IMG/VR virus record: IMGVR_UViG_3300042389_000329
Coordinates: 575 to 64,574 of that record
DNA: 64,000 nucleotides
From: a virus
Taxonomy: Duplodnaviria; Caudoviricetes
Reading direction: 5' to 3' (one strand)
The notes beneath the pieces are model-generated. The model was not told the DNA's origin. It made no database searches and saw nothing but the letters and a program-made list of their open reading frames with translations. The position numbers were made by a program, and so were the translations under genes. Positions 23,501-42,809 of this stretch are shown in pieces (the stretch's first letter is position 1; each line of letters starts with the position of its first letter).

Positions 23501-24356
23501 AGTTGTTTAATGATTCCAACCCTGCTTCACCCGCAGTACCAAATGTGGCAACAATAGCTCTGTCAGCTTGCATAAGTCCAAGACCAATACTCTTCTGTGC
23601 AGAAGCAGCTAGCCCATTTAGACGAGAATTGATTGTAGCAAGCCTCTCTGCTTGAGGAAGTATAGAGGCCTCAGATATGATAGCGTCTGCTCTAGAGGCC
23701 ATTTTTGCACCAGCTCCCATGATACGGGAAGTGGCACCAAGAGCTTTGAGTGCTCCTCCCCATGCAAAACCTGATGCAAAGGCACCTATGGAAAATCCTA
23801 GGTTCTTTACAATATTGTCCCATAAGAAGTTGCCAGTGAACAAGTTAGCAGGTTCCCACCAGCTTCCGTTTCTTTCTCTTTCTGTTTTGTAATGGGCGTA
23901 TGTATCCTCTAGAGATGTAGTGTATTCATTGAGAGATCTGGTTAGTTCGTTGTCATAAAAGGATGAGAACTTCTGATCTTGGACAGATTTAAGAACACCA
24001 TAAACCAATCCTGCAGTACCATTAATAAATGTGGCACCAGCATTACCAGCCATTTTAACAACACCATTGTACATTTTGTCAAAGCTGCCTTGAGACTGGG
24101 CATACATCTCCTCATTATCCCTTCCAGGAAAATACAGGGGGTATCTACCAGAAAAGTCTACACCAGCAGTGGGAACCGCTGGAAAATCACTTCCTGTTTT
24201 AGGGGCTGCTGTGTTTAACAAGTTTTGAAAAACATCTTGATAATCAGCAGTTTCCTTTTTAGGACTGTACGCATATGCGCTCCTATACTCACCAACTAAA
24301 TCAGGAGGAGTAAAGGGTAGATTTACAGGCTTTATGGGTTGTTGCTCGTCTGCCAT
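11523..24356 (-). CDS. Giant virion-associated DNA-dependent RNA polymerase (crAss-like double-psi barrel) with N-terminal membrane/coiled-coil part and zincin domain (4277 aa)
   Basis: Catalytic GSDFDIDKL (DFDID at 14229-14243), YRIPTQ motif, FESGRKVG and VDIAK motifs, and zincin YHEVFH...EEALAEEF (HEVFH at 18447-18461). Confidence 0.92.
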   Translation of the reverse strand: MADEQQPIKPVNLPFTPPDLVGEYRSAYAYSPKKETADYQDVFQNLLNTAAPKTGSDFPAVPTAGVDFSGRYPLYFPGRDNEEMYAQSQGSFDKMYNGVVKMAGNAGATFINGTAGLVYGVLKSVQDQKFSSFYDNELTRSLNEYTTSLEDTYAHYKTERERNGSWWEPANLFTGNFLWDNIVKNLGFSIGAFASGFAWGGALKALGATSRIMGAGAKMASRADAIISEASILPQAERLATINSRLNGLAASAQKSIGLGLMQADRAIVATFGTAGEAGLESLNNSQDFRQQMIDNFKRTRGYDPTPADLQEINRLAESVGNWSYLGNSALLTATNYIQLPRIFSSSFKSDKDILNKVAFKEGKYVSTLPEKGFGKRLYGAGKAASLLFNTAEAFEEGAQYAIQTGTQNYFSKKAKGEKPSITDDAILFGLNEALTTDEGLLNVFTGGFAGALQSAGFVGVKGGLPVFGKTGKIGERGIFGFGGEQGKLRDEAVTALNNSLIKDKMKSAYSNLKAAEIIQEEREAAIRRGDILEAKDLEFDYAHTFIETRLKYRAKEAVDYEINDLRNQALSDGGFLKLQQEGYAAPTDTQPSFIKRLDNLQAHANVAAKLDGDLKIKYGGVVGPNGERTYTDDVISKMVYAGSKIANYDQRISDVNQTLGLSGVNTSEILESVGTDGKPSEEAIKDLAEQINTKPGLTDDEREDLKTNAKDLTEMAMRKKAFIDEYNDIKLNPTKYKTGPAKAPEGTKDKGAVTVDTQKGEIKFETGKEYYIGVPVKRTKKGVKHEMFSRFIVLGESPDGKLVLQVSSRDPKEDGEIFTVKKDFFDGQDIEEISAVENKPNAKFYTEVAGNVFTYQLGRGKTVQGNVRYEGKTGKLVFVTLDGKKKYNVTRDMFVVKEGYEVAKIYSEEELSDRAKEALTAKVGEDELSSLYAERDAILAEAVQKVTAAREEVDKKLEDAKATLQKADEEIKKITTTKKGEPKKQISKAQRKVLENLRRTYIGTEDAIKKLEEERDELEQTRDYLKSLYDQRENLPDTFDEAIKDLKAMINDTGEVIKTSVESLDSGYKLLESIDSAIQTAMSLLNDYITRLREENPNLPLYLEDLQNRIEPYLGEQGAKNYIQEKLGLTETVMELEDQISEFAEELKIPDMTKRAEKLEADIKDIQEGLEKILSEREPKLEALQALEKTAEEYRKRVAEEEQIARNQKLIKRFLKTADDGVQTEMYEYDYEPDPKKPDLYVVTGTTAPSEKFAGGPLADHHVRANRFAANMDKMPNRENLRGIIVTSKNEGGILPGLTQFLKDKGDQTADIDPKETIALVIVEIDPDDESVKRLVGIDGKPLASKDLNAAIFQVFPNAELKWSNNDSMFRKDTPTEVVEELTKQYDEWRTQTLNNPSTDTYSIDASFGIPEVVGELDEKNNFVPTEDAVTSVQDAGLITNEDLVNRAVVEIPTSEGALDNGSVSFSKPLGKPFLILKNGYVKLKNRLLTKQEAATVYQAIERLVTAVHENEDGIDSDDAQRMLSYLRSIVYWGVPKDNKPRGQNSVFFLEEDVEGPFKRFTLNIGAKDYNIPFTPTAVRAKKDEIISLLEGLYNNINSKLVDTKWSQPFTEVLSISPQGEMTTREWPNYQSYLLSNRLPGASGQLDGEARNSKELPLYTQMRPLRDTDDVNRKGIYFIVDHGQDKFKYEKTSTTKKKKIKPGKLGEKEEKGEKKEKQYRVAPPGKFILDGETLNIFTTAPSEKYPKGRKIYFVANRELILKKDVKNGIKTAFGVGDAQTIQEELISKGMTKEETLAQFRGNIFNAIKGELVAKKDISSDTETVIEDDTDEMSEDVASSLFGVKPKAKKEEEEEEEIEIEEETEEENGDDTFGDFNIEDDDDLKDDIDSMDDDVPFRLIIEEQVKKFEGENWKKAEAWLSKYFSNIPVYRVKNVLQSTNGVQAWGMFKDGAIYIYGNAEVGTVYHEVFHAVWRMFSDPEERQAIINELRSRKGTFYDRKLGEDVSYATATERQLEEALAEEFRDYVQKGKIPARPTQGKNFIQRLFADLVNFIKEFFTGEKAAVNTANLFEKINTGYYNTYSPYHTSLSYAKMGIIDIEEAMVDDGAALDIANFTGQEVNDIMQEMTYQTLGKLIKTNKSLFEVPNLDRQELYEELRVQIRRTVTKLYKANLDNITLGKYTTKGELNQAKREMAKSLSMRKSIMNDVTWSQLVNKHEEYLRKYSIEFDENDVINLTADENTGKGEYDSADKIDHFKKANAAIKLILSTVPLVKEKQTVSPNGRSTLSTEYIPSSIGGHTLLPTIEVFIKIMNQTHDSANIEDMLNRIKQMAKGDPNYRTIYTRLTRRNFTTPGIDLSNLKETHDADLLTALWTTFKKQNPDVKNHYIRDNGEVQIGDANLATAARQAKQELLNDMVKVLRGKNPYFKEDKAKQAYIATKGAINRVELNNMEDRVKFLRSLGIKFKLADIKKLSKEKQEIFRDAVGGLKTSLKKADRVSSINSKTLNIDGRLMELGEIKSAIENPEFDSTYIGGSGERKQTYIGTNAASDLYDALTQVDNFYDIPKKYPQYAYLITDSFAQNSVIINRMFDLNTGKRKADAQEYMKVSIADSTIDTSRGKSKESSRLNYRERFIQEINMNLAGYYLNLVPGDASLEHMMKMGNAITEDMLLYGRSRVHSIFEGYFTSEVDLSREKDRHIADVKGRNKKDLRFFKPILGKELHDEITSQTKNKTLNKENSQLTSDQLYKKYENQIVEALDSFINKQSEKLKETLSTYNIIEATSEGWILDNLDFPTDRPTKDEMLKRRLDALTINYMINNIELHKILYSDPYQYADELKRIKNFLSPRQAIMYGSKKINSILNDVYNKGYDVDDIGRTDFGQDFFRSITLGKVFSTNELPLYDDPYEEADGGGIIMFKAYRNFRIRSNNWNKREESQYRYDIAWEKRDKKLKLSANEVKILEKGNPRVKSAYTTLKPIVAGNKGNGRSFNDVLLDKFALYPLSYRMMKEFKPNSNAVKLYNKMQKEDVDYAVFESGRKVGAEKVFDIYDSNGNFNSVPFETQQEIDNPSLEQGVLNVPFAIMSVQAEVPSKEDEIVTRGSQVTKLVTLDMMEAGMPVDFQPDEDFETRYNNWVALEDKESYNGGNNLYKEIKRNEDLLIRLIEEGYEQLLDKFGIKETFSNGAYSYTLDNIDKTVEVLEREVLNREVNDNVLSALRGLKSKEVVLEATPAYQLIRNILYSIADKNVISQKISGGQKVQLPVTLLESKRAEAKQVGDKTVYASDELKFYVNEKGERVCELYVARWFKSDLSDKELLKALNQTKEGQEILRGIAYRIPTQKQNSIDVFVIKDFLPQEFGDNVFVPSALVKKVGSDFDIDKLSMYLKNIYIDRNQVPKLMKLELINTNSESQLRDFYENNLLGRYKKMKEIEKEAAIETAAQDLLESVLGVEDLTESLVNDLKLKYVPSIDEFLLEAKGMDPYELNKKYSRFSYKKLLENAYIDSLEKLVTNELNFESLVKPNSADQLKDLSKKIVDKLGLTKFDYTQVDNMLDRVFMSNLRHAFVTGKYAIGIAAVNQTNHSLNQRSNVFIDDEKLEAVSLTDRSWLKDGKIKFFKEDGTNNFNTVKIGDREVVTLSMIKNKAGQFISDIIGQFIDGYVDIAKGPWIMQMGATPNVASTYLFLTKIGVPIDSVVFFMNQPIIRDYLRTLENEGYTWVFNGKFVNQVKNSSKYKVDENKAERVTAIPIESKLEENLGKQEFDANERAEQHFILDEFLKYAKMGEHLFRVTQGTNYDTSNFNDPLLVFKKEMQLINARETIISSVDKVLDNSFLKRLRINIGRLRNAYAEVFMSDKPKVRNIVQKVLLPYVNLSDREFVKVAQKVVADLFDWAVQNDFTTKSNVRLNTYIEKALLADDNYVRQIDDFLQKIKADENHPLYNNLVIKALQPVLSDRVNGVDNLKMKGRDGKLYDQNQIIYDFKKLKSHLAGIGNEELFNKIVTVAVLQSGLSNSPISFTSLLPYDDFKRIYNPVLSNLENVPNLDLFYKLNVFERNNWNNDDIIPHSKAKLFQSKDGNWFYNTNINFLPKDVSRAVKTGQIPQVMTMPVLSREGTSDFIVYSWEDESIPLADRRAMKRRGDFSFMNKGLFKKVRDAYGNPLIHPTESKGKVYENFVYQAINAWGDSFRANEFYANARKSKIDNGFIKVKEVAPEKIIPYFVNSPALESFKERIVQDFPTMEIDELTVQLKDGNYYLKDQITADFLERLGYTRAQIGEILTKLC

Positions 24357-27205: not shown

Positions 27206-30200
27206 TTAGAGATTTTTAAAAGCTTTTACAACTGAACTATTTATACCCTTTTTCTTGCTTACCTTTTTACCATCTTTACCAGACGTACGATACATTTCTT
27301 TTATCTCATCAGGGGTAAGCATTCTATTTTCCATGTCTGGAAATAAATCTTCCATATATGAAGGAAGGGTAGTCTGAGATGTAGGTTGTGGAGGAGCAAC
27401 AGGCACCTGTCTATTAATTGGAGCTGTATTTTGACTTACAGGAGGTATAGGTGTGCCCATTCTATCTACAGGAGTTAAATCTTGATCTCCCGTGTACATC
27501 GTAGGCATCTGAGGTTGGAAAGGTGCGTTGACATTAAATGTTCTGAAACGAGGATCAAAACGGAAACCGTATAGATTTTGTGCAGTAGCTAATGTTCTGT
27601 TTTCCAATTGGTTACGCATAAATTTATCACCAATAGACTTCAGAGCTTCTATATTAGTTCCTTTTGTAATAGATTTAGCCTTCTCTTGTCTTTCGTATTG
27701 TCTGTCCAGAATAGCTAGATTTTGTAAACCGAACTGGTTTAGAAGATTTCTGTTTTGCTCATACACACGTTGCTTTTCAGCCTGGTTCAATCTAAACTGC
27801 TCACCTAGCACTTTTTGGTTAGCCTGGTATTTCTGAGCGTTTAACATAGATTGAGCAGCAGGATTGTATCCCAACATTCTTTGCTGTGATCTGAAGGTAG
27901 CCTCATTCTCATTTAATATATCCTGTAGAGATATATCATAAGGTGTGGATAATTGAGGCTGCATGGTTTGAGCCTGTACAGGTTCTAACTGATTGGTAGC
28001 CAATGCGTACATCTCTCCAATCAACTGTCTTGGATCAAGGTCCTCCTGATCTGGACGTACAACATATGGAAGTGCTGCTCCTATAGCATCAAGTATTTGA
28101 GACCTTTTGTAATTTGACGTCACATCAAATGACTTCCTAAGACCTGTAGGTGGAACATAAGTTTCCATTGAAGGCAGTACTGGAACAAGTTCATCCTTTG
28201 TAGAAGTAGTGGGTGTAGTTTTAGCAGCATCTGTTGAGTATAAAGACGCAGCGCTTGCAGTTTGTCTACCAAAGTCACCATCCACTCTCAAACGAGTGGG
28301 AACACCTAGTTTCTCAGCTTCTCTATTAAACGCCATTTGGAAATCTTCAACATCACTCTCACTAGAAGGATCAAAGTCTTCCCAATTGTACCAAGGATTT
28401 CTAGCCTTCATTGCCTCAAAATCTGCTTGAGTTACACCTCCATAGAATACATCACCTTTTGTCTGTCCCTTAGGTACAGTGGGAAGAGCCTTTATTGTCT
28501 TCAGTTTCTTACCATCTTGAGCTGTTTCTTTGAATGCCTCTTTGTCCACCTTCACCTTACCTCTAGCCAAATCATCAGCAACCAATCCCATTTCTTCAGC
28601 TGTATCATTGATGGCATTCTGCAAGGATGCAGCAGTCATCTTCTTATCTGCAAGTTCTTTGAGTTTTTGATTAGCTCCTAACATAGTGTATTGCAAAGAG
28701 TTAAGTGTCATTTTATCTATAGGACTGCTCACCTCAAAGTCTTCTAACATCTGCGTTGCTTTATCAAGCTTTTTGTTCTGCTTGTTCTCTTTCTTAGATA
28801 GATCAGCTACATAGGTTTTGAACTTCTTACCCTTAGCCTCTTCTCCAAGCATTGGAATATAAGACTTAGGTATCTTGAGATTACCAAACACTACAAGGTT
28901 AGAATCACCACTTGTGCCATCTTGTAGCTTTACAGCAGGTTCACCTCTTTCTACCTCTACAGGGTTCTCACCATAGGTGATACCAATACCAGTGTTTCCT
29001 CTTCCATCAGACTCATCGTGGGATTGACCTCTGAACATGATAGTTTCACCACCATCTGGTAGATAGGGATTCTGAGACATTGTTTCTGCATATCCACCCC
29101 AGTGTGTCTGGAGCTCTCCACCCATTTGCATAGCTGGTCTTTCTGTAGACATAGCTCGTGCACTAGGAGGAGTGTAGGCTTTTAGGTGACCACCAGCTCT
29201 AAGCATATCTGCATCATGAGGAGGCTTAAGAAGGTCTTTTACATTGTGCCCTCCAAAGGATACAATCTTCTGTGGTTGCCATGTATGACTTACCCATTTG
29301 TATGGAGATGTCATTCCACCATCTTCCATGTTAGCACCAAACTGTTGCTGAACACCTATTCCAAAGTTTTGTCCTATGATTTTATTTATATTTTGTCTAG
29401 ACAGGTCTTGTTGATTTTCAATTTTATCTTCTTGCAGTTTGTCAATAGCAGATCCTATAAATGTAGCCGCAGTACCAATAGGTCCACCAAATAAACCACC
29501 AACACTACCAAGCACCTGACTATAACCACTTGTTTGACCTCCTCCAACAATATTAGCAAGTTGTTGGCCTTGTGAACTTCCCAAAGCATCCATAAATGCT
29601 CCACCACCAGCAGCTTTGTGCATCTTACCACCATGATAGAATTGCTTGTAGCGTTCACTATCATTCAATGGTTCATATCCAAGGTTGTCATAAAGTGTAC
29701 CAGGAGCATAGGTGTTAGCAATTTCTCCACCCCCTACAGAAGCTCCAAATTCAGCAAGCACATTTGTACCTACGCCATAAGAAGGAAACATTTGTTCTGG
29801 TTGAAATGCCATATCTTCTGGTCTAAGATATTGTCTTCTAGGCTGTTGTACAGGTCTGCTAGCAGCAGCATCACCCATTACATTTGTTAGAGCAGTTTGT
29901 TGTTGTGCTTCCTTATACCTTCTTTTTTGGTCCTTGATGTTTTGAATACCACCAATCACCTGACCCAGAACAGGAATACCTTTTGCAAGATCAGGTTTCT
30001 TTTTTGTTGATGCTGCTGGCATAGCTGGAGGATTGTAATTTGTTCCCCAGTTAAACTGTTGTTGCTGAAGGTTTTGTGTACTAGGGGTGAGCTGAGGACC
30101 AGTAGGACCTAGTCCAGGAATCTCATTTCCTACCTGAGATTTTGCAACTTTCTTTCCTTTCTTAGCACCAGCCATTTCTGCAAACTGTGCCATTTGACTC

Positions 30201-30514
30201 ATATCCATTCCACCACCACCACTGTCATCACCACCACTCTGAGCTAACTCAGCTGCAGCCTGTTGAATAGCAGCTAATTTTCTGCGTTCAGCATCCGTAG
30301 TTCCCGTAAGCTGATAATCAAGCTCATCATACATACCACGAACATCAGCAGGCTGATACATCGTAGCGGGTGCTTCACTGGTCATATACGTACCTATCTG
30401 AGCCTTCTTAAGCTCCTTACCGTGCTTAGCCATGAATGCTTCTTCTGTAGGAAACTTCTTGTAGAATTCCTTTTCAGACTTAACACCAGCGATTTTGAGG
30501 ATCTGTTTTTTCAT
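27206..30514 (-). CDS. Cargo protein with repeated xxxG(G) motifs and peptidoglycan-binding-like motif (1102 aa)
   Basis: AQIG, SQVG, AEFG, YHGG, MEDGG, MQMGG and AQDG motifs. GQSHDE..VEVERGE conserved-looking block. DVEDFQ...VDGDFGRQT. Confidence 0.6.
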   Translation of the reverse strand: MKKQILKIAGVKSEKEFYKKFPTEEAFMAKHGKELKKAQIGTYMTSEAPATMYQPADVRGMYDELDYQLTGTTDAERRKLAAIQQAAAELAQSGGDDSGGGGMDMSQMAQFAEMAGAKKGKKVAKSQVGNEIPGLGPTGPQLTPSTQNLQQQQFNWGTNYNPPAMPAASTKKKPDLAKGIPVLGQVIGGIQNIKDQKRRYKEAQQQTALTNVMGDAAASRPVQQPRRQYLRPEDMAFQPEQMFPSYGVGTNVLAEFGASVGGGEIANTYAPGTLYDNLGYEPLNDSERYKQFYHGGKMHKAAGGGAFMDALGSSQGQQLANIVGGGQTSGYSQVLGSVGGLFGGPIGTAATFIGSAIDKLQEDKIENQQDLSRQNINKIIGQNFGIGVQQQFGANMEDGGMTSPYKWVSHTWQPQKIVSFGGHNVKDLLKPPHDADMLRAGGHLKAYTPPSARAMSTERPAMQMGGELQTHWGGYAETMSQNPYLPDGGETIMFRGQSHDESDGRGNTGIGITYGENPVEVERGEPAVKLQDGTSGDSNLVVFGNLKIPKSYIPMLGEEAKGKKFKTYVADLSKKENKQNKKLDKATQMLEDFEVSSPIDKMTLNSLQYTMLGANQKLKELADKKMTAASLQNAINDTAEEMGLVADDLARGKVKVDKEAFKETAQDGKKLKTIKALPTVPKGQTKGDVFYGGVTQADFEAMKARNPWYNWEDFDPSSESDVEDFQMAFNREAEKLGVPTRLRVDGDFGRQTASAASLYSTDAAKTTPTTSTKDELVPVLPSMETYVPPTGLRKSFDVTSNYKRSQILDAIGAALPYVVRPDQEDLDPRQLIGEMYALATNQLEPVQAQTMQPQLSTPYDISLQDILNENEATFRSQQRMLGYNPAAQSMLNAQKYQANQKVLGEQFRLNQAEKQRVYEQNRNLLNQFGLQNLAILDRQYERQEKAKSITKGTNIEALKSIGDKFMRNQLENRTLATAQNLYGFRFDPRFRTFNVNAPFQPQMPTMYTGDQDLTPVDRMGTPIPPVSQNTAPINRQVPVAPPQPTSQTTLPSYMEDLFPDMENRMLTPDEIKEMYRTSGKDGKKVSKKKGINSSVVKAFKNL

Positions 30515-30515
30515 A

Positions 30516-33500
30516 TTATTGGTATTTATCTAACCAGCCGCCCTTGGTTGGTTTGTTATAGTTTGTAAAGTTAAGCAATTGATCCAACTTCTTAAGTGGT
30601 TGAGCATCAGCATTATTCACCCCACCATTCCTCTGTTTAACATTTATCTTAGGTTTCTTTCCTGTCTTAGATGTTATAAAATTTGAAAGTTTTTCCTGGT
30701 CAGCAAGCAAATCTATATCAGGCTGATTAACCTTCTTTCTTCCAGCCAGATTTTCATAGTCTGGATAGAAGGTGTTTGTTGACTCATCGTATTCACCTAT
30801 TCTTGTATTTCCTGGTCCAAATATTCCAACACCTCCACTAGGCACTGTAGAGAGAATTGTTTTTCTTACAGCCTCTGGTGTTACTGGTACCACTTTAGAT
30901 TCTTTTACAGGCTCAGGAGCTGGTGTCACCACTTTCTTCTTTGCAGGAGGAGTTGGTGTTACTACCTTCTTCTTTGCAGGAGGAGGGGTAGGTTTAGGTG
31001 TAACTGGTTTTGCTTTTGTTGTTTCATTCTTACCATACTTTTTCTCCCACTCAATCTTTTCCTGAGGGGTTCTCATGTTATACGGCTTAATAGAAAGAGG
31101 ATCATATCCATAAAAATCAACAATGTCACCATAAAGTGAACCTAATTTATGTCTATTATCACGATCTATATTTTCAAAAGTATATCGTTTAGTGGGTGTT
31201 ATTCTCGTATCATATAATATAAAAGGAGCATTTAAGTCAATTAGCATATTAGCACTTTCTCTCTTTCTATATTTCCATGGTTGATTTGTAAAACGACCAT
31301 AATAGTCTGCCATTGTAAAATCTTTGTCAACACCGCTTACTTCTCTACTAGTATAAGGATAGGTTCCACCTTTTAATTCATCAGTTAAAGTTTTTACATC
31401 CCACATGTTACTTCTAGTAATAGCATCTGAATTAGATTCTCTAACATCTGTAGCTTCATTAAGATTGTACTTTTTTTTATTTCCATAGTATTTCATTAAT
31501 TCTATGGAATTGTTATACAAAGCAAGACTATCAGCTGTTGTAGGGGCAGGGATAGTTTTACCCTTCTGAGCCACAGGGTATTCTGTAACGTATTCACCAT
31601 CAAACTCATAGTCTTCTCCTGGTTCCATGTATTGGACATCTCCTGTGTCAGAGATACCGAGAAGGGGTTGATCTACACCCTCCATAGTGATTATGTTGGA
31701 TGGGATGATGACAGGCTCACCTACATTCTCAGGGTTCCAATATCCCATAGGATCTACAGGAATATCACCACCATCTTGTAGGGTACCTGTAGCAGATGCA
31801 TAATCAGCACCCTCCTGATAACTAGCGTCTCTAATACTTCCTACGAAAGATTTAAGAGCAGCTTTGCTAGGGAAGTACATAGTCTTCTGCTCATTGTATT
31901 TGCCTGTAGGATAGGTAAAGGTGTATTTAGTTGGCTTGTTTTCAAACTGACTAGCTTTGAGAGGACTAGGCGCATTTGGTACAGGAAGTTCATATCCTAA
32001 GTCTATTGCTTCTCTAGGAATAGGGATAGGTTTTGCTAGTTTCTTACTTTCAGGAAGAGGAAAAGGTCCAATTGTTCTTGAAGTTTGTTGCTTCTTTACA
32101 GGTGGTTGTTTCTTTACAGGTGGTTGATACTTAAGACTTTTTCTTACAGGAGGATGATATATTTCTACAGCAGCACTATAAGGAAGAACATTTGTTTCTG
32201 TTAAATTTTTATTTTCCTCTAACGCTTCTGTTAACCCTTTAATTTTTCTAGATGTAGCAAAACCAGGATCTCCAACCACTATAACATCTTTAGGCACCTG
32301 AGGATATTGGGATGGACCCCAATACTGTCTAGGAAGAGATTGCTCTGTGTATTTAGGAAGAAATCTTCTTTTTCCTTGATAGTCCCCCTGTATAAGATTA
32401 CTGAATGCACCAACTAGACCAGACCCGCTCATTAAAGAAAAGTTACTAAGGTTCTTTTTTACATCAGCTCTAGCTTTAGCAAGATCTTTCTGTCCTCTTA
32501 TGTAGTTTCTAACGCTATCCTGCCAACGTCTGTAATCATTTATATCTGTTGTAATAGCGCTACCATTCTGACTAATAGTCTTAGGTTTGAAGTCTAGTCC
32601 TGCTTGGTAGTATTTCATCTCCTGTCCATTCTGTGCTGTTGTAGCTGCTTTACCTTTACCCTTTACAATTCTATTGTTAAGCTCAGAAAGTTTCTCAGGA
32701 TCATTGCCCATCACATCAAGAAGATTCTTAATCTGTAGGTTCATAGTTCCTTCCTTAGTCCTAGGGTTAAGCTCCTTTTCCCCAAGGTTTTTATACTTGT
32801 CGATGATTGACTTCATCTGATTAGGAGTGGTGGGTTGGTTACCCTTCAATCCTTCAGCTTGTCTTAGGCCATATAGAACAGCATTCACCTCAGTTTTTGT
32901 ACCAGGAAATGCACCACTTGTAATCCATGAATATTCTGGTCTAGACATTCCTGAAGCCTTCTCACTTACAAAGTCCACCTTTGGATAGGAAGGAACATCT
33001 CTTCCAGACTGAGGAGCCATGTAATCAAGAGCGTGTATCATTTCGTGACCAAGAACATAAGGAGAAACCCCTAGTTCAGGATCATAACCTTCCATCATAG
33101 TGGAAGGATCTGCAGCAATAATAGACTGTTTAGCAGGAATATATGCTGCAAGCATTCCCCTTTTTCTCATTTCAGGAGCTGGTTCTAGCTGTACAGCAGG
33201 AACCTTCTCTAATGCTTCAATTCTTTTACTAGCTATATTCTCAAACTCAGGAAGAGTTTTTCTTTCTTCATACCAGTTCTTGAGCCACTCCTTAGCAACC
33301 TTTTCACCATCCTGTGCACTAGCCTTTGTCTTCTTAGCATAGGGACCATTGGCAGGAGCAGCCCCAGCTGTACGTGCGTACGTGAATCCTACAGCACCAG
33401 GGAGAACACCACCCATTTGCATTGTTCCACCCCATGCACCGTTGTAGTTGAATCCAACATCCGTTAGACCTCCCATAGTTCCTTCTATGCCATTCTGTGC

Positions 33501-34457
33501 TTGGGGAGCATCATACTTGTCTAACCATCCACCATCTTGTTTCTTCTTAGGTGGTTTTACTTGTTTGTATCCTCTTAGCCAATCTTGCGTATAAAATTTA
33601 AAGTTTTCAAGATTTCTTAGACTAGGGTTTGGTTTGAGAATAGCAGTTTGTCCAACTTCAGTTGGTACACCTAAACCCATACCTTTTACATAAGCAGGTT
33701 GAAAAGATTCATTTGGTAAATCTGTCTCAATAAGATAATCAGCAGATCCTTTTCCTGCTGGATTTTTACTTATTTTTCCAGTTCTTTTACTTACTGTAGG
33801 TTTTCTACCCATGGGATAAAATAGTTCTCCCTTTGCAAAATATGGTGATGCAGGTTTTCTGCCAGCAAATGCAGCCTCTAGTCCTGAACCTTGCATTCTA
33901 ACTAATTGGTTTTCAAATTCTTGTAACATTCTAGGAGATACTTCTTCTCCAGCTTCTCTTACCAAACCTGTTTCAAAAGCATCATCTATCGCAGACTTTC
34001 CAACTTGTCTATACCAATTAGCTTCATTGGGTTTAAATGCCAAGGGGTTTAACTTATGAGCTTTACTTAATACACCAGTCTTTGTACTTTGTTTTACAGC
34101 TCTTGCAGCTTTAGAAGCACCAGCTCCACCTCCTAGAAAACTTAATGGATCAAGAAGTATGTCTGCAGCTATAGCCCCTGCAGGACTTTGAATATTCATT
34201 GCTTCTGAAGGAGTTTGGTATTTCCCTGTAACCAGTTTTGTTACAGCCTTTTGAGGAAAGCCAAGAGCATCTGATAATCTATCCATCATATTAGATGGAA
34301 GAGCTGTTAGCATTGTTCCTATCTGTGCCTTATAGGGCTCAGCACCACCAGCAATAGCTCCAAAGAACTTACGTTGTTGTTCTGTCAGGGGATGCCCATG
34401 CACCTCCTTATCGTGAAGGATTTTCCTTGCTTTTGTGGATGTGAGTTTCTTTGCCAT
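30516..34457 (-). CDS. Modular cargo protein with cassettes bounded by AQxG/QxGG motifs, including a zincin (1313 aa)
   Basis: About ten AQxG/QxGG motifs, GGWLDKY twice, and HEMIH...EVNA metalloprotease motif. Confidence 0.6.
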   Translation of the reverse strand: MAKKLTSTKARKILHDKEVHGHPLTEQQRKFFGAIAGGAEPYKAQIGTMLTALPSNMMDRLSDALGFPQKAVTKLVTGKYQTPSEAMNIQSPAGAIAADILLDPLSFLGGGAGASKAARAVKQSTKTGVLSKAHKLNPLAFKPNEANWYRQVGKSAIDDAFETGLVREAGEEVSPRMLQEFENQLVRMQGSGLEAAFAGRKPASPYFAKGELFYPMGRKPTVSKRTGKISKNPAGKGSADYLIETDLPNESFQPAYVKGMGLGVPTEVGQTAILKPNPSLRNLENFKFYTQDWLRGYKQVKPPKKKQDGGWLDKYDAPQAQNGIEGTMGGLTDVGFNYNGAWGGTMQMGGVLPGAVGFTYARTAGAAPANGPYAKKTKASAQDGEKVAKEWLKNWYEERKTLPEFENIASKRIEALEKVPAVQLEPAPEMRKRGMLAAYIPAKQSIIAADPSTMMEGYDPELGVSPYVLGHEMIHALDYMAPQSGRDVPSYPKVDFVSEKASGMSRPEYSWITSGAFPGTKTEVNAVLYGLRQAEGLKGNQPTTPNQMKSIIDKYKNLGEKELNPRTKEGTMNLQIKNLLDVMGNDPEKLSELNNRIVKGKGKAATTAQNGQEMKYYQAGLDFKPKTISQNGSAITTDINDYRRWQDSVRNYIRGQKDLAKARADVKKNLSNFSLMSGSGLVGAFSNLIQGDYQGKRRFLPKYTEQSLPRQYWGPSQYPQVPKDVIVVGDPGFATSRKIKGLTEALEENKNLTETNVLPYSAAVEIYHPPVRKSLKYQPPVKKQPPVKKQQTSRTIGPFPLPESKKLAKPIPIPREAIDLGYELPVPNAPSPLKASQFENKPTKYTFTYPTGKYNEQKTMYFPSKAALKSFVGSIRDASYQEGADYASATGTLQDGGDIPVDPMGYWNPENVGEPVIIPSNIITMEGVDQPLLGISDTGDVQYMEPGEDYEFDGEYVTEYPVAQKGKTIPAPTTADSLALYNNSIELMKYYGNKKKYNLNEATDVRESNSDAITRSNMWDVKTLTDELKGGTYPYTSREVSGVDKDFTMADYYGRFTNQPWKYRKRESANMLIDLNAPFILYDTRITPTKRYTFENIDRDNRHKLGSLYGDIVDFYGYDPLSIKPYNMRTPQEKIEWEKKYGKNETTKAKPVTPKPTPPPAKKKVVTPTPPAKKKVVTPAPEPVKESKVVPVTPEAVRKTILSTVPSGGVGIFGPGNTRIGEYDESTNTFYPDYENLAGRKKVNQPDIDLLADQEKLSNFITSKTGKKPKINVKQRNGGVNNADAQPLKKLDQLLNFTNYNKPTKGGWLDKYQ

Positions 34458-35323
34458 TACTTGTAAGAGATTTGGGCTGGTGTAATAATGAACTGACTAA
34501 CCAGGTGAGCATCATAGCGGTTGTCCAATATGTGTCTCACCTTCAACTCTTTAGCACGTAGGGGTTCTTTCTTAAATGATCTCTTGCCATAGTCCATATT
34601 AGCCTGGTTTACCACCTTATCCAAAGATAGGGATTCACATGTACGTATGAATAATGGTTCATGCTTATGTTTAACCAATGACCAGAATGTGTTGTATTGG
34701 TAGAAGTTGTCACTCTTGGTGAATGTAATTGTCTTACTATCAGTGTTGTATATAGGATACTTTAAGTAGTCCTTCAGGTTGTTGATTGGTTTGGGAACCA
34801 GCTCAAGCACACCTGTACTCTGTTGACCATTGTAAAGGACAGCCTTATTAAACCAAGCATTATCGGTTTCTATCTTGCGGTTGTCATCAGACACACCATC
34901 TGGATCAGAGAAGTATCTATATGCCTTAGTGTAATCTTGTACACTCTGAAGGATTTCATCTCTGTATTGATAGGCAAAAGGATACTCAATGATGTAAGGT
35001 TCAATGTTTCCGTAGAAGTAGTTATACACCACTGGATTCTTCAGGTGCCTCCAGATACATGCACTATAAGATTGAGTGTAAGTGGCTGCCACTTGTTCAT
35101 TTGGTGTCACCTCTGATATGGGGAAGTTGATAGACTTTTTGCAGCGACCAGTAGATGTAATAATAATTACACTAGCAGCGCTGTCTACACTATACACCAC
35201 CCCTTGAATCAATGTAGCCTTAGGTACACCTGTAGCTATAACATTTCCGAGGTTGTCAGAAATATCAAAAGGTCCACTCCTTGGAGAGGCTTTCACTAGC
35301 TTTATGAATACGTTTTGAGGCAT
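34457..35323 (-). CDS. C-terminal part of the tail stabilisation/muzzle protein encoded as a separate gene, with an N-terminal Ig-like domain (288 aa)
   Basis: IWRH...YNYFYG.IEPYIIEYP and WFNKAVLYNGQQSTG motifs look like the muzzle C-terminus. The N-terminal GPFDIS...GVPKATL domain is shared with 44238-44744. Confidence 0.6.
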   Translation of the reverse strand: MPQNVFIKLVKASPRSGPFDISDNLGNVIATGVPKATLIQGVVYSVDSAASVIIITSTGRCKKSINFPISEVTPNEQVAATYTQSYSACIWRHLKNPVVYNYFYGNIEPYIIEYPFAYQYRDEILQSVQDYTKAYRYFSDPDGVSDDNRKIETDNAWFNKAVLYNGQQSTGVLELVPKPINNLKDYLKYPIYNTDSKTITFTKSDNFYQYNTFWSLVKHKHEPLFIRTCESLSLDKVVNQANMDYGKRSFKKEPLRAKELKVRHILDNRYDAHLVSQFIITPAQISYK

Positions 35324-35333
35324 TTATATCTTT

Positions 35334-38300
35334 TTATAATGGAGCAGTTGTAGTGGTGGTTGTAGTTCCACATGTATTTCCACAATAAGCACCTTTTGTA
35401 ATTGTAACAGCACCACCTGTGGTGATGATGCTATTCTCCACAGCACATGTAATTACAAAAGGAGTGGTGTCACTAAGCACAGCTTCTCCTGTACTTCCGT
35501 TACAGTTAATCCACTGAATTGTTGCAGTGGGGTTAGCTGTAACTGTATATTCATAACAATTATCACATGTCACTGTAGTGGTGGTAGTAGTAGTTGGTGG
35601 AACAGTGGTTGTAGTGGTGGTTGTTGTACATTCTATACAATCGTCTTCACTTGTACAAGATGTACCACACAAGGTGATAATCACCCCTGGATCAGAATAT
35701 GGAACAGCTTCAGTGCTAAAGCACAAGTTTATAAGAGCTCCTGGATCAACAGGAATGAATGAAATGCTCTTGCTTCCACATAGATATCCAGCTACATTAT
35801 GAAAATCCTCTGTTGAGTTGTAAATAACATAACACTCACAGGGATAGGCAGTTGTGGTGGTACTTGTTGTACTACTAGTAGTAGTGGTTGTTGTAATCAC
35901 CTCACAAGCTTCACCCTCCAGATCGCAGCCTGTATATGCTGTTGTTGTAGTGGATGTTGTAGAGGTAGAGGTTGTAGTGGTGCTACTAGTGGTAGTGGTT
36001 GTAGTGTTTGGAACAGGATTAGCTACAATAGCATCAAAGTCACCACAGCAATCATTGAGCCCTGAATAGAAGAAATTGTTCTCACCAATGTACCAGTTAG
36101 GGATATAGCTGTGGAAGCTTATCCAGCTTTTGGTATTGAAGTTGAAAGACACTGTCCAGCTCTTGTTACAGAAGTAGTCTGTATCTGTAAGGAACACTTC
36201 TGTTTTGGTTAGCTTTTCTGCACCACAGCATTCTACAGGTTTTTCTAAGTAGAACTTCTTATCCGCATCATCATATATGATACCGTCCACTTTTGGAACA
36301 TAGTCAAGCTTGGTGATGATCACCCTGTCATACTTGCTATCATATACACCATGCAGTCCTACACCATTAAAGTGATTATCCACATCCACCTTAGGGAAGT
36401 AACGTAATATCTCAAATGCTAAATGGTCTGTAAAGAACCTGTTCATTCCAGAACCAAATCCTGATAGGTCAACAGCTTCTGTACCAGTGATGAGGAACAC
36501 CTGACCACGCTTAGCATCTATAGTCACTTGTCCTTGTGGTATCTTAAGGAGCACCTTGTTCTGTGTTCCTACATATCCCAAATCAGTTTCGGCAAAATCA
36601 ATTGGAGGAGCTCCTCTGAACAGCGATGGGTTACCAACATATGCTGCCTGAGGGTTGCTAGTATCAATGGTTAACAAGTTGTTGTACATCAACGTCTTGT
36701 TCTCAAATCTAGCCAGAATAGCTCTGTTTTGAATTCCATCTAAAGAGATAAGGTCTCCAAAGTTTTGAGGAAAGTCAAAATAAGATATGGCTCTGTAAAT
36801 TAACCAGTTGTTCACTCTATTATCAGCATCTATGTTTTGAGGATCTGAGTAGATGGTTCTAAACGGATACTGTGTATAACATATTGCCTTCCAATCAAAT
36901 GGTAGGTGAGTGAATGTATTCTCTCTATTTTGTTTAGAGAATGTTACATTATAGTAGTAGGTGTTGTCCTGAGCAATAGGGACATAACTTTCTTGTACCC
37001 AGTCATCAGGAATACTTGTACTTACATGTGGCCAGAAGTCACCCTCTCTGTTGTTGAAAGCTTGACGTAGATCTACGTTATATGAACTCTCACAATAGAA
37101 ATAAGGAATACCATAAGCAAACTGATACATCTTACCATTATAATATGTTCTGCCAGAACTGGTAATTGGAGTTTGCTCATTAGGACAATCAAGATTGTTT
37201 GCCTTAATTGAGAAGAAGTTTGTTAATACAGCTGTCTCAATTGACGCATCTACAAGGATGGAACGTGCTGAGTGCCAGTATTCTGGGTAGGCCACATTAC
37301 CAATCTCATCATAGAATATATCACTGTCATCAGGAGCATTTACACGATTGTCAATAAAGAAGGGTAATTTGGTCTTAAAGGCAAACTTACCGATGAACGT
37401 ATCACCACCAAAGAATGTAGCTGTAGTACCAGTTGAAGGAACCAGATCTCTTTGGAATCCTGTATCCACTGTATCATAAGAGTATATCTGTCCATACTGA
37501 TTGACAAATATGTTCTTAAGAGATCCGTAATAAGAGACAACACTTATATATTCATCCTTAGCAGGAACAGGACAATTGTCTAGATTTCCATCAACACCCG
37601 CCTCACTAAGAGTCATTCTAGACCTATCGTTTACAGTGCCTGATATAGTGGGAGTTTGATTGGGGAATGGAAGAGGAGATCTAGGACCACCTGTATAGGT
37701 TTCTTTAGTCTTTAGATATACAGAACTCTCTCTGTTCCAATTGTTTACATCCTTGTTATCGTTAACACCCTGTACACCAGGAATCAGATATTGCTTGAGC
37801 TCAAGCTCACGTTGCTTAACTCCTAGTCCATTAGCAATTGAATTACTATAGTCATAGCTAGCAATTGAGTTGTAGGAATAAGCAAAGTTCTGTCTAGTGA
37901 TACCATTTATATAGATGGTGAGGTAGGCTTGGTAGGCAGCAAACAAAGCACTGGCATTATAAGCACCAGTGGTAATAAGTGCTATCTGATTAGCGCTATC
38001 TAATGCATCCTGTTGAGCCTCAAGACTTACCAGTCTATACATAGCGTTATCTCTCACTTGTGTAAAGTGAGCCCTACCAGCACCAAATATTACGTTCTCC
38101 AGCTTCAGAACATTACCTAAGAATGGTTGCCCAAAGGATGTTTCAGGGGAGTTAAATACATGTCTGTACTTTGCACCCTCCTCATCAAACGCATTTAGTT
38201 GAGCTGGGGCACACAGATCATATCCAATTTCGTCTACTAATTCAATACTATAACCACCATCACCACTTTCATAAGTGGGAGGACTAAGAGAGGGTATAGT

Positions 38301-40619
38301 TCTAACACCACCAAATGTAGACCCATCCACTGTAAAGGTGGTTTGCTCTAGGGCTGCTTGAGGAGTGTTACAACACCCGTTTGTAGGATTCTGAGCACAA
38401 TATTCTGCCCAGTTAGCATATCCTACAGGAGGAAGTAATATAGATCCTATAAGTGCATCTATTCCACAAAGTGAACCTGCAGAAACAGGTGGATAGTAGT
38501 TAAATGTAGCAAGATCACCAGGTGCCACTGTAATTTTATACCAACTGTATGTGTTAGATATAATTGACCCAGCTGCTCCTCCACCAAATATAGGAGATGG
38601 GAAGTTTAGTGCACACAGATTAAATGATGTGTTTAGAGGAAAGTCACCACTAGCACCAATTGTTTTTTCAACAGCTTCTCCCGAATAACAGTCAATATAC
38701 TTTATAGTGCCAGGCTGTGTTGCATATATAGTGAACTGTCTACATACAGAGGATGTACTTCTAGAAGCAAGAGGAATAGTGAACGCATTGCTTTTCTCTA
38801 ACAAGAATGGGTCTTGTCTAAGATCGTTGTAAGGATAGTTGGGGAAGTAATACTCTTGACCCTCACGCTCATACTTACCCACGTTTCTAAGTATACCCTT
38901 AGCTACGATGGACTTATTGGTGCTTCTGTCACCACGGATAATCTTGAATCCAGCAATCTGACTCTTTTGTTCAGTTGTAAGATTGGAAGAGTTGATGAGA
39001 GATTGTACCTGTTGTACATCTATTTTAACACCTAGTGGGAATATAGCGTCCTTTTGGATAGCCATAGAGTTTTGGCCTGCGAAGATTGCAGACTCAAATA
39101 TGGGACTCACCAGGACATCTGGAAACTTGTGATGTCTAATAGGTTGCCCAGCAAGGTCTCCCCATAATTCATCATTACAGGGATATTCTTCTGTAGACTG
39201 CCAATAGCTAAACTCACCAAATTGGTAAGGTCCTTTGTACTCTGTTGCTGGAGAATAGCCAGGAGAGAACCCTGTCACTACAGCTGTGTTATATATCTTC
39301 CAATAAGGACTGGTTCCAGAAATAGGATCTTCTGGGTCACCTATAAAGTCATCGTTTGTTTGAGGAACAGGAGATAGGTCTAGAATGTTTGCAAGTCTAC
39401 CAGGAATATGGAATCCATCAGTTTGCTTACCGTTAGTGAGCAAGAACACTATCTCAAAAGCATACACCTCATCCCTTAGATATCCTCTAAGGTTGGTGGC
39501 ATTGAATGCATCAGCATAGGTTTCTGTATTAGGAATACGATAGGTTTCCCACTGCAGAGCGATACCGTTAGCTATCTTCTGGTAATTAATTCTTTCTACA
39601 GAAGTGAGTTGGTCCCACACCAGAATATCACGTACCGCTGTTATATCTTGAGCAATCTCGTAATATGGAAACTTCTCAAGTATGTCATTAATTGTCAGAC
39701 GAACATTGGTTTTGTTCTGACCTGTGTAAGTAATCACCTGACTAGGACCATCAATAAAATAGGTGCCTACTAACTCAACAGAGGTGATAGCATTTACAGT
39801 TCTGATAACTGCTACATTAAAATAATCGTACAGTCCTGTATTATCTAAGTTGCTGACAGTGAGCTCAATAGATCTACCCACCTGATAATTAAAATTAACA
39901 GTGGTGATACTGGGATCAGCAATAGGAGTGGGATTGGTAACAGAGTAGTAGGAAGTGAAAGGGTTTCCAGCAGGATCGGAATACTGAATAGCAAACTGAT
40001 ATGTACCTGCTTGAAGGTCACCCCCTGTGGTTATTCTAGTGACATCTAGCTGAGGAATAACAAAATCAGGCTGGACATTTAACCCGTTGCAATCTATCTC
40101 ATTGCTGTACACAGGGTCGCACGCAGGTGTACCTCCTATGAGAACATAGGGTAGGTTTTCTGGGTTGAGATCAATATATCTACGAGGATTGATTCCATCT
40201 GTCCAGTACACCTCTGTTGTGCACTCTGTAATTCTGTGGACAGCCTTATGGATGGGATGATTAATGTTGAAATTGAGACAAGGGGCACTTACATAGGTGC
40301 GATAGATACAGTCGTTATTATCCATGTAGCCAATCTCAGAAGCACCTGTTTCTGGATTGGTGATGAAGAATACATGTTTACTTCTCTCTTGGATGAAATG
40401 AGTACCTATAAGCACAAAGCCAGAAGGGAACGTAACACAAAGTTCGTTCCCTGGCTCATTCTGATAGTTTACAGAATTAGCATCAAAGTTTTCTACAGCA
40501 GCATTCAGCGCATACGTTAGCTTACCCTTAGGAATCTGGTTGAGGGTCTGATCGAGGTTTAAGCCAGTGGTAGCGTTATTATACTCCTGTCTAATATTGC
40601 CTTGTTCTTGCTCAGCCAT
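35334..40619 (-). CDS. Tail stabilisation / muzzle protein (P22 gp10-like) with Cys-rich and poly-Thr extensions (1761 aa)
   Basis: GLNLD..YALNA..YQNEPGN start, VYWTDG.NP.RYID, GY.RDEVYAF, IRHHKFPD, FFGGDTFI and WISFHSYIP motifs, plus position after the tail tube gene. Confidence 0.82.
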   Translation of the reverse strand: MAEQEQGNIRQEYNNATTGLNLDQTLNQIPKGKLTYALNAAVENFDANSVNYQNEPGNELCVTFPSGFVLIGTHFIQERSKHVFFITNPETGASEIGYMDNNDCIYRTYVSAPCLNFNINHPIHKAVHRITECTTEVYWTDGINPRRYIDLNPENLPYVLIGGTPACDPVYSNEIDCNGLNVQPDFVIPQLDVTRITTGGDLQAGTYQFAIQYSDPAGNPFTSYYSVTNPTPIADPSITTVNFNYQVGRSIELTVSNLDNTGLYDYFNVAVIRTVNAITSVELVGTYFIDGPSQVITYTGQNKTNVRLTINDILEKFPYYEIAQDITAVRDILVWDQLTSVERINYQKIANGIALQWETYRIPNTETYADAFNATNLRGYLRDEVYAFEIVFLLTNGKQTDGFHIPGRLANILDLSPVPQTNDDFIGDPEDPISGTSPYWKIYNTAVVTGFSPGYSPATEYKGPYQFGEFSYWQSTEEYPCNDELWGDLAGQPIRHHKFPDVLVSPIFESAIFAGQNSMAIQKDAIFPLGVKIDVQQVQSLINSSNLTTEQKSQIAGFKIIRGDRSTNKSIVAKGILRNVGKYEREGQEYYFPNYPYNDLRQDPFLLEKSNAFTIPLASRSTSSVCRQFTIYATQPGTIKYIDCYSGEAVEKTIGASGDFPLNTSFNLCALNFPSPIFGGGAAGSIISNTYSWYKITVAPGDLATFNYYPPVSAGSLCGIDALIGSILLPPVGYANWAEYCAQNPTNGCCNTPQAALEQTTFTVDGSTFGGVRTIPSLSPPTYESGDGGYSIELVDEIGYDLCAPAQLNAFDEEGAKYRHVFNSPETSFGQPFLGNVLKLENVIFGAGRAHFTQVRDNAMYRLVSLEAQQDALDSANQIALITTGAYNASALFAAYQAYLTIYINGITRQNFAYSYNSIASYDYSNSIANGLGVKQRELELKQYLIPGVQGVNDNKDVNNWNRESSVYLKTKETYTGGPRSPLPFPNQTPTISGTVNDRSRMTLSEAGVDGNLDNCPVPAKDEYISVVSYYGSLKNIFVNQYGQIYSYDTVDTGFQRDLVPSTGTTATFFGGDTFIGKFAFKTKLPFFIDNRVNAPDDSDIFYDEIGNVAYPEYWHSARSILVDASIETAVLTNFFSIKANNLDCPNEQTPITSSGRTYYNGKMYQFAYGIPYFYCESSYNVDLRQAFNNREGDFWPHVSTSIPDDWVQESYVPIAQDNTYYYNVTFSKQNRENTFTHLPFDWKAICYTQYPFRTIYSDPQNIDADNRVNNWLIYRAISYFDFPQNFGDLISLDGIQNRAILARFENKTLMYNNLLTIDTSNPQAAYVGNPSLFRGAPPIDFAETDLGYVGTQNKVLLKIPQGQVTIDAKRGQVFLITGTEAVDLSGFGSGMNRFFTDHLAFEILRYFPKVDVDNHFNGVGLHGVYDSKYDRVIITKLDYVPKVDGIIYDDADKKFYLEKPVECCGAEKLTKTEVFLTDTDYFCNKSWTVSFNFNTKSWISFHSYIPNWYIGENNFFYSGLNDCCGDFDAIVANPVPNTTTTTTSSTTTTSTSTTSTTTTAYTGCDLEGEACEVITTTTTTSSTTSTTTTAYPCECYVIYNSTEDFHNVAGYLCGSKSISFIPVDPGALINLCFSTEAVPYSDPGVIITLCGTSCTSEDDCIECTTTTTTTTVPPTTTTTTTVTCDNCYEYTVTANPTATIQWINCNGSTGEAVLSDTTPFVITCAVENSIITTGGAVTITKGAYCGNTCGTTTTTTTAPL

Positions 40620-42080: not shown

Positions 42081-42809
42081 TTATCTAGTGTTTGGAACAT
42101 TAGGTGCTTGACCATCAACTCCATCACTTGTAATATCTGTCTTCAATTTGAAGTAGGTGGATAGTAACTTCTGAGAAGTTAGCTCTAACACTTGCTTTTC
42201 TAGGTAACCAGGAACAGGAGACTCTTTATCAAGAGGGTTCTTGCAAAGTTCTTCTGTTGTATATTCTGGTGTGCCACAGCCACATTCTGGGAACATAATG
42301 GAATTTGGAACATCCTCCTCGAACAAAGCAACAAGTCTGATGGCTTTCAGAAGGGGGTTGTTCACATAAAGGTACCCATTAGTAATCCAGTAGTATTCTT
42401 CCTTCTTGATGATAGGAAGCTTAAGCAAGTTAATATATCTATTGATGGTTATTTCCTTTAGTTTCTTTCCTTGCCCGCTCATTGCATTGATTGAGTAGAC
42501 ACCCTGAATAACATACTGATAGTTACCCTCTGTGATGCGAGGAAGCTTGAATTTAGTTCTAGCTACGGAACAAGGATCAGAATATTCACAACATTCAGAA
42601 ATAGGAACCTCCACCATCTCCAGACAGGGAATGGTGGTGAACACTGTATCAGTGGCCCAAAGCTTCCTCAGATTAGTCTCACGTTTGATAAGGAGGAAGG
42701 CATTGTTCTTAATCTCAGACATGACAGCCCTATCCGTGATCAAGTTGTCTGTAGACAGCAACTTGTGCATGGAGCGCACATCTGAAACTAATTTCCTAAA
42801 AGTTGACAT
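42081..42809 (-). CDS. Tail ring / adaptor protein (242 aa)
   Basis: Position in the tail block. IPCLEM.EV...ECC, RTK.KLP and YYWITNGYLY motifs. Confidence 0.6.
   Translation of the reverse strand: MSTFRKLVSDVRSMHKLLSTDNLITDRAVMSEIKNNAFLLIKRETNLRKLWATDTVFTTIPCLEMVEVPISECCEYSDPCSVARTKFKLPRITEGNYQYVIQGVYSINAMSGQGKKLKEITINRYINLLKLPIIKKEEYYWITNGYLYVNNPLLKAIRLVALFEEDVPNSIMFPECGCGTPEYTTEELCKNPLDKESPVPGYLEKQVLELTSQKLLSTYFKLKTDITSDGVDGQAPNVPNTR

Follow-up and report, generated by a model that had tools for sequence, protein, structure and literature searches.

The 64,000-nucleotide (nt) window analysed here is the whole stretch from position 575 to 64,574 of the IMG/VR virus record IMGVR_UViG_3300042389_000329 (Duplodnaviria; Caudoviricetes) and represents nearly all of a 64.6-kb viral contig with an estimated completeness of 56%. 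It contains the gene P0001, hereafter the slot gene, whose product of 1313 amino acids (aa) appears to be one conserved carrier protein interrupted by four inserted cassettes (A to D), with short Gln- and Gly-containing motifs at the joints (Table 1). Ten motifs were located along the protein: AQIG at aa 44, QDGG at aa 307, AQNG at aa 320, (M)QMGG at aa 346-350, AQDG at aa 381, AQNG at aa 608, SQNG at aa 629, (L)QDGG at aa 893-897, AQKG at aa 963 and RNGG at aa 1276. The heptapeptide GGWLDKY is present at aa 309 and again at aa 1306, where it is trailed by the final Gln alone, and a HEMIH sequence lies at aa 471-475 (nt 33033-33047). All of these elements stand where a preliminary description of this DNA, made from its letters only, had placed them.

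The motifs exceed what the composition of the protein predicts. When motif enrichment was scored against 20000 residue shuffles of P0001, Q.G (the dot being any residue) occurred 13 times compared to a shuffle mean of 4.94, a count reached by 5 of the 20000 shuffles, and [AS]Q.G occurred six times compared to 0.67 expected (3/20000). The combined pattern, [AS]Q.G or Q.GG, was present nine times against an expectation of 1.09 and was reached in none of the 20000 shuffles. Among the other 26 open reading frames (ORFs) of the window, [AS]Q.G was near expectation with the exception of the next gene (4 versus 1.16), and W[LIVM]D[KR]Y had no occurrence in any of them. In addition, Leu, Ile, Val, Met or Phe was found at position +5 from the Gln or Arg in 8 of the 10 motifs (background 0.22; binomial 1.6e-4, in a post hoc test). 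All units of the protein, carrier segments and cassettes alike, end in [A/S/K]-Q-x-G(-G), usually followed by x-x-hydrophobic.

Table 1. Units of the slot gene P0001 and neighbouring genes in the window. Confidence values (pLDDT, predicted local distance difference test) are from the model of aa 300-1313.
Feature	Coordinates	Strand	Extent and sequence marks	pLDDT	Remarks
Slot gene P0001, whole	30516..34457	-	1313 aa + stop		
S0, N-terminal leader	34317..34457	-	aa 1-47, ends KAQIG		optional in relatives
Cassette A	33540..34316	-	aa 48-306, ends KPPKKKQDGG		absent from L034; family at other carrier sites elsewhere
S1, carrier segment	33306..33539	-	aa 307-384 (GGWLDKY ... AQNG ... MQMGG ... KASAQDG)	under 50	Gly/aromatic-rich, predicted coil
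Cassette B	32637..33305	-	aa 385-607, HEMIH, ends TTAQNG	78-94 (aa ~380-599)	predicted zincin-like domain; confidently folded model
S2, carrier segment	32562..32636	-	aa 608-632 (AQNGQEMKYYQAGLDFKPKTISQNG)	under 50	
Cassette C	31779..32561	-	aa 633-893	under 50 (most of the block)	mostly low-confidence; Pro/Lys-rich centre, small folded end; common to L034
S3, carrier segment	31560..31778	-	aa 894-966: QDGG, small all-beta domain, AQKG	56-80	most conserved part, 117-118/120 homologues
Cassette D	30633..31559	-	aa 967-1275, ends KQRNGG	64-88 (N-part), 82-89 (C-part)	folded N-domain, Pro/Lys linker, small folded C-domain; absent from L034
S4, carrier tail	30519..30632	-	aa 1276-1313 (..VNNADAQPLKKLDQLLNFTNYNKPTKGGWLDKYQ)	under 50	
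Pro/Lys linkers				under 50	
Joints, 5/6 in the model			AQNG, SQNG, QDGG, AQKG, RNGG	under 50	
Muzzle protein gene	35334..40619	-	1761 aa		Pfam crAss_MUZ 6.9e-35; fixes context
288-aa ORF	34457..35323	-	288 aa		directly upstream of slot gene; matches C-terminal end of muzzle-type PHROG
Next cargo-position gene	27206..30514	-	1102 aa		PHROG 'virion structural protein'

Comparison of P0001 with the best 120 of its 338 homologues revealed that conservation follows the motifs. The spacers (aa 301-387, 603-640, 894-969 and 1273-1313) were covered by ~80-118 of these homologues, block A by ~55 and blocks B-D by ~22-35. BLAST segment ends concentrated right after motifs, at aa 50 (23), 387 (39) and 969 (60), and segment starts at aa 603 (56), 880/894 (29/27) and 1273/1280 (26/17), in agreement with the earlier proposal that the motifs delimit blocks. 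The consensus of each spacer continues into the next spacer. A search for shorter relatives returned 249 matches, and among the 120 of these that were listed at least 11 were exactly 225 aa long and free of inserts, running from MNNWLDKYEQGG... to ...KGGWLDKYN; a further relative, P0195 (303 aa), consists of the S0 leader and the carrier without any insert. The spacers of P0001 together thus appear to be one conserved carrier protein of ~225-300 aa and, because insert-free carriers exist in other phages, P0001 itself reads as a carrier with four insertions. The preliminary description had seen the spacers as short segments between the blocks; their conservation holds, and they are not mere linkers, being parts of one carrier protein that also exists without cassettes.

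Carrier members in our alignment A1 were 50-86% identical to P0195 (median 83%), a level of conservation similar to that of the portal protein (81-84%). Scanning with P0195 in HMMER yielded 3034 protein clusters (50% identity) at E<=1e-3, 1530 at E<=1e-10 and 944 at E<=1e-30. Leaderless relatives begin at a joint (MNNWLDKY..., or M-x-x-WLDKY). The slot genes of loci L059 and L075 as well as P0199 carry in place of S0 a Cys-rich leader (CxC...CxxC) that ends in xGG before WLD.Y and, judged by eye, is zinc-ribbon-like. A structure model of the carrier alone had a mean pLDDT of 38, with only the S0 helices and the S3 strands reaching ~55.

It is precisely at the motifs that relatives acquire, lose or relocate cassettes, as the preliminary description had expected of an alignment of orthologues. 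In locus L034, the DNA is 92-97% identical across the ring gene, the muzzle gene, the 288-aa gene and the common parts of the slot gene, and the slot protein of 513 aa is 96.3% identical to P0001 (494 of 513 aligned columns). This protein lacks aa 45-306, 381-607 and 969-1279, corresponding to blocks A, B and D, and the breakpoints lie within the repeated motifs. With P0195 as the reference for locating inserts of >=60 aa, we detected 391 of them, distributed over 208 of the 241 proteins. On the left side, these inserts tend to begin behind the carrier motifs AEDG, QDGG, AQLG, AQNG, SQDG, A[KR]xG and TKGG, and Q.G was found within +-10 aa of 184/300 left and 121/300 right junctions compared to 70 of 1425 control windows. 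The left-junction logo reads A (71%) or S (15%), then Q, x and G, and the right-junction logo [K/A]-Q-[N/D/E]-G with another G following in 52%.

Cassette families also occupy different joints. Family A (49 matches) was located 15 times at site A, after S0, four times at site C and twice at site B; family D (24 matches) eight times at site D and seven times inside S1; and family B (14 matches) ten times at site B and twice at site C. The cassettes bring their own 5' AQxG and 3' QxGG, even beside a carrier motif or another cassette (P0202, P0013); the 'QAQFG' of cassette A, for example, is present even immediately behind the 'SRDGSEI' of the carrier, and tandem cassettes are joined as '...KKQRNGG NLPT AQKG...'. 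The claim that the four blocks of P0001 are unrelated was upheld in part: blocks C and D have no significant pairwise similarity, and they nevertheless have a common layout of a helical part, a Pro/Lys-rich linker and a small C-terminal part. Single-linkage clustering of the inserts merged most of them via multi-cassette inserts and Pro/Lys linkers and was discarded. Because a stricter clustering into 185 clusters still joins blocks C and D, which are dissimilar in pairwise comparison, we give no firm number of cassette families.

The slot gene occupies a fixed place in related genomes. In 80 of 80 viral loci, the ring 1 gene precedes, in this order, the muzzle gene, an optional ORF of ~200 aa, the 288-aa gene and the slot gene, and the 1102-aa, 919-aa and giant genes have homologues next in line as far as the locus reaches. 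Across these loci the slot gene encodes 186-1522 aa (median 597), some copies being cut by contig ends, and homologues of the upstream 288-aa gene range from 179 to 326 aa. The next gene starts with a conserved leader of ~41 aa that ends in KKAQxG (KKAQIG here) and beyond which the sequences diverge; Q.G is present within the first 70 aa of 41 of 46 distinct N-termini of this gene. In nine of the 80 loci (L006, L017, L023, L044-L047, L051 and L067) an in-frame fusion links the slot gene with the next gene through the joint ...NFTNYN[DET]MAKAKxGKK..KAQxG, and in these fusions the carrier replaces everything upstream of the KAQxG motif of the next gene.

Small ORFs beside the slot gene in L049 (11067-11741), L075 (10927-11547), L059 (9228-9890) and L071 (6422-6943) resemble homing endonucleases by eye, with what we take to be GIY-YIG-like and HNH/NUMOD-like N-termini. 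A cultured cyanophage, Leptolyngbya phage Lbo-JY46 (L092, PP438436.1, 120-7461), has a crAss Ring_1 gene with a 1654-aa ORF and then a 495-aa protein behind it, and is a possible laboratory model. Its 495-aa protein has an S3-like N-terminal domain (50% identical to P0001 aa 897-962), the motifs QAGG and QNGG, and a weak C-terminal transglycosylase-like Pfam match below the cut-off (E 0.0011, 20 bits versus 27).

Structure prediction was carried out for aa 300-1313 of P0001 with AlphaFold2 (AF2) on a 36-row alignment (mean pLDDT 56). The separate confident units of this model, together with the different sets of homologues of the individual blocks, characterise P0001 as a multi-domain polypeptide. 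Block B, whose HEMIH conforms to the HExxH signature, had been described as a zincin. In structural comparison with VIA-align, 11 chains reached Z>=5 and none >=8, modest scores for a multi-domain model; 10 of the 12 best rows align to model residues 71-303, and each of these ten is a zinc peptidase or a metal-dependent hydrolase. The best folds were PepO (Z 6.2, root-mean-square deviation 5.0, 168 aligned), Zmp1 (6.0), neprilysin (6.0) and PPEP-2 (5.4), and Pfam Peptidase_M91 matched below its cut-off (19.5 bits versus 25, E 0.0013). Block B is therefore predicted to be a zincin-fold metallopeptidase, with a modest Z of 4-6.2, in line with the preliminary description. The S3 segment matched two small beta proteins whose function is unknown (3pjy_B and 3m7a_B; Z 5.2-5.3 over 69 aligned residues). 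A Foldseek search of the PDB with the 1014-residue model, a poor query because of its several domains, returned no matches at E<=0.001. A complex prediction for portal aa 1-720 with carrier S3 and S4 scored 0.00, which gives no verdict either way. The effector-type cassettes anticipated earlier are found in relatives, where members of the slot family carry ART-PolyVal (P0043, P0175, P0059), ADPrib_exo_Tox, GNAT, His_Phos_1, LysM+Amidase_2 and SLT domains, that is ADP-ribosyltransferase, GNAT, phosphatase and wall hydrolase cassettes.

The minus strand carries all large genes of the window. Terminase, portal and major head protein were named by PHROGs on the same strand as the ring and muzzle genes, of which Pfam identifies Ring_2, Ring_1 and the muzzle, and the portal is ~26% identical to crassvirus portals (138 matching records). 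Behind the muzzle gene follow the 288-aa ORF, P0001, the 1102-aa gene, a 919-aa ORF and a 4277-aa ORF. P0001 thus sits where crAss001 encodes cargo proteins found in virions according to its article text (PMC10172136), which supports the cargo reading of the preliminary description.

The muzzle seems to be split into the 1761-aa crAss_MUZ ORF and the 288-aa ORF, which matches the last ~200 positions of a muzzle-type PHROG, and this two-gene arrangement was found again in the 80 related loci. The 4277-aa ORF (11523-24356, minus strand) has no Pfam or PHROG match; it contains HEVFH at aa 1966 and, at aa 3372, DFDID, which we take to be the crAss-type polymerase motif. A 416-aa ORF (42809-44059, minus strand), flanked by tail-fibre-like and ring genes, has a PHROG match to 'DNA repair exonuclease' (8.5e-47), and a 958-aa ORF (1451-4327, minus strand) has collagen-like and tail-fibre PHROG matches, 24 families in total.

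Taken together, a common grammar of units and joints, the joint-exact gain and loss of cassettes between near-identical phages and the occurrence of one cassette family at different joints characterise this locus, as do its fixed genomic slot after the muzzle gene and the enzyme cassettes of its relatives. We interpret P0001 as the variable payload protein, of carrier-and-slot construction, of a distant crAss-like phage, and assign this reading a probability of about 0.72. The cassette-built character claimed in the preliminary description is borne out by this joint-exact exchange. The carrier would comprise S0, the Gly/aromatic-rich S1, the short S2, the small beta segment S3 and S4 ending in GGWLDKY, into which cassettes A, B, C and D would have been inserted. 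The chain would be made late, be loaded into the particle via the conserved carrier segments, and be threaded out through the tail with the DNA, as has been proposed for the crAss001 cargo, so as to supply the host cell with a mixture of enzymes that differs from strain to strain. The joints may act as sequence-specific recognition points under selection on the protein.

Several results weigh against this interpretation. Packaging and injection of P0001 are inferred from synteny only, and carrier alignment A1 compared with gp45 of crAss001 by hhalign gave a probability of 0.5% (E 0.11). An unfolded state of the carrier is at most tentative, the model being of low confidence and its alignment shallow (effective number of sequences, Neff, 1.6). 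P0001 matched none of the PHROGs families; blocks A, C and D returned nothing meaningful in Pfam at E<=10; the best ESM Atlas score for block A was 0.83, to unnamed viral clusters only; and sequence searches of the PDB stayed at chance level both for P0001 (E 0.0097, on a Pro/Lys linker) and for the carrier profile (E 0.086). Since neither Pfam, PDB sequences nor the atlas assigns blocks A, C and D, the label 'effector' is applied to these three by analogy.

While the feature itself is real, large and tidy, its joints can be read in two ways, which we consider about equally probable and each somewhat short of even odds, the first being marginally preferred. P0001 may be a polyprotein that a protease of the phage or the host cleaves at the Q-x-G(G) joints, and cutting in the particle or after ejection would free the cassettes and small carrier peptides. 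The same tetrapeptide closes every unit irrespective of its fold and of what comes next, even at cassette-cassette junctions, the residues at and around the motif are small with a hydrophobic one usually at +5, most joints are predicted to lie within low-pLDDT linkers, and leaderless variants begin exactly at a joint. The leader of the next cargo gene likewise ends in KKAQxG, and in the fusions the carrier substitutes everything upstream of this motif. Processing of polyvalent proteins has moreover been predicted by Iyer et al. 2017, as stated in the article text (PMC5512222). On the other side, no candidate protease emerged: Peptidase_C48, S78, S77, ClpP and MPTase-PolyVal were each found in 0/5 related genomes, two of which are >=90% complete, the search covering these five families. 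The zincin of block B appears dispensable, being present in 0/5 motif-keeping relatives and also absent from L034, and the HEVFH of the 4277-aa ORF was rejected as a conserved processing zincin, its second His being kept in 2/6 (Glu in 4), as well as a relative of block B, to which this region has no similarity. Cutting the 225-aa carrier at its own motifs would leave only ~20-100-aa peptides, although these are strongly conserved, and the article text on crAss001 reports no cleavage and contains neither 'cleav' nor 'proteoly' (PMC10172136). A use of the motif as protease site, as suggested in the preliminary description, or as capsid-loading tag, its other suggestion, gained no supporting result in this analysis. 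The fuller version, in which the joints form a proteolytic maturation code of tailed-phage cargo and an unrecognised phage or host protease frees an enzyme cocktail plus conserved peptides, we regard as tentative, at roughly one chance in three.

Alternatively, the chain may stay whole, with the carrier segments docking inside the tail or portal as gp45 of crAss001 does; the Gly joints would then be points at which the chain leaves the docking surface and tolerates insertions, and the motif copies at cassette ends would keep the flanking docking peptides intact. The article text describes gp45 as an extended chain with short ordered pieces on portal, tail barrel and muzzle (PMC10172136), the carrier is mostly predicted coil and yet about as conserved as the portal, and the failure to find any of the five protease families also fits uncut seams. 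However, cassettes retain motifs of their own at places without a neighbouring carrier segment (P0013, P0202), and the carrier has no detectable homology to gp45. An external or tail-tip display scaffold, with cassettes acting on the cell surface as cell-wall or capsule enzymes, would be compatible with the LysM+Amidase_2 or SLT cassettes of some relatives and with the muzzle (tail-tip) genes adjoining the slot gene. We consider it improbable, as ADP-ribosyltransferase, GNAT and phosphatase cassettes need cytoplasmic substrates (NAD, acetyl-CoA), the gene position is that of the crAss001 cargo genes, and podovirus ejection proteins such as T7 gp16 also bear wall hydrolases. Even less credible are motifs that serve purely as DNA recombination signals or scars, that is recombinase or homing endonuclease sites with no role in the protein, despite the endonuclease-like small ORFs by the slot gene in L049, L059, L071 and L075. 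The codons for A, Q and G of the motif vary synonymously in 175 distinct contexts with the residues kept, and repeats in the DNA of cassette ends are microhomologies (14-20 of 45 nt match; best 10/11 nt) with no conserved nucleotide site across junctions. This synonymous variation and the weakness of the DNA repeats argue for a motif maintained through selection at the protein level and against a site in the DNA.

The combination of a constant carrier and uniform joints with enzymes that differ between near-identical phages marks out a quickly evolving locus of host takeover or anti-defence; the carrier is matched by at least 944 protein clusters (E<=1e-30). The crAss-like phages rank among the most abundant viruses known, and what they inject along with their DNA is largely unknown; sequence between two joints behind a muzzle gene provides a rule for new injected-effector candidates. 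If the joints are cut, polyprotein maturation would be added to tailed-phage biology, and the locus would provide a naturally occurring blueprint for packaging foreign proteins in phage virions. Such a polyprotein strategy is to our knowledge so far known from eukaryotic viruses and, if the maturation code is true, would extend across a very large crAss-like clade (3034 protein clusters).

Parallels to this arrangement exist in several systems. The virion polyproteins of adenovirus, African swine fever virus and poxviruses are cut at Gly-Gly or Ala-Gly by CE-clan proteases and resemble P0001 in the Gly-ending motifs between virion protein units. They belong to eukaryotic viruses with a known cognate protease, whereas Peptidase_C48, the one CE family searched for, was not found here. 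The T4 internal proteins and Alt, which bear a capsid targeting sequence (PMC9503650), are head-packaged, injected enzymes. Their short N-terminal leader is removed by the prohead protease. In contrast to P0001, they are single-domain and not a slotted carrier, and Peptidase_S77 was found in 0/5 of the related genomes searched. Vibrio MARTX toxins combine a conserved carrier with a strain-varying mosaic of effectors, which are released by cleavage between them. MARTX is a toxin that bacteria secrete and that contains a cysteine protease domain, whereas P0001 would be a phage particle protein with no protease identified.

Closer in setting is crAss001, in which, according to the article text, the genes behind the muzzle gene (gp44) encode the cargo proteins gp45 and gp46 and then polymerase-type giants, all detected in virions by mass spectrometry (PMC10172136). 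C1 (gp45) and C2 (gp46) are described there as extended chains that reside in the tail and the capsid and presumably leave the particle in unfolded form (Bayfield et al. 2023, PMC10172136). Like the genes for C1 and C2, P0001 lies behind the muzzle gene and before giant RNA-polymerase-type genes. Unlike in crAss001, a 288-aa ORF directly follows the muzzle gene here, and the carrier has no detectable sequence similarity to gp45; neither cassette polymorphism nor a joint motif is described for gp45 and gp46 in that text (PMC10172136).

In general kind P0001 corresponds to the class of polyvalent proteins, which by the article text combine several unrelated enzyme domains per polypeptide and are encoded among late or virion genes (PMC5512222). 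P0001 lies among same-strand virion genes with synteny in 80/80 loci, and ART-PolyVal cassettes of this class occur in its orthologues, P0001 itself having no hallmark Pfam domain of the class (ART-PolyVal, MPTase-PolyVal, LPDs). For polyvalent proteins, packaging, injection and perhaps also processing have been predicted (Iyer, Burroughs, Anand, de Souza, Aravind 2017, PMC5512222, article text), and the words 'linker' and 'crAss' do not appear in that text. In the literature on polyvalent proteins, crAss-like cargo and WLDKY we found no description of the carrier or the joint motif; the supplements of PMC5512222 and PMC10172136 were outside the scope of this search and may bear on it. P0001 is set apart from the polyvalent class by its defined 225-300-aa carrier, its fixed insertion joints and the Q-x-G(G) ends of its units, and would accordingly be a polyvalent cargo protein of phages whose grammar of carrier and slots has apparently not been described before.

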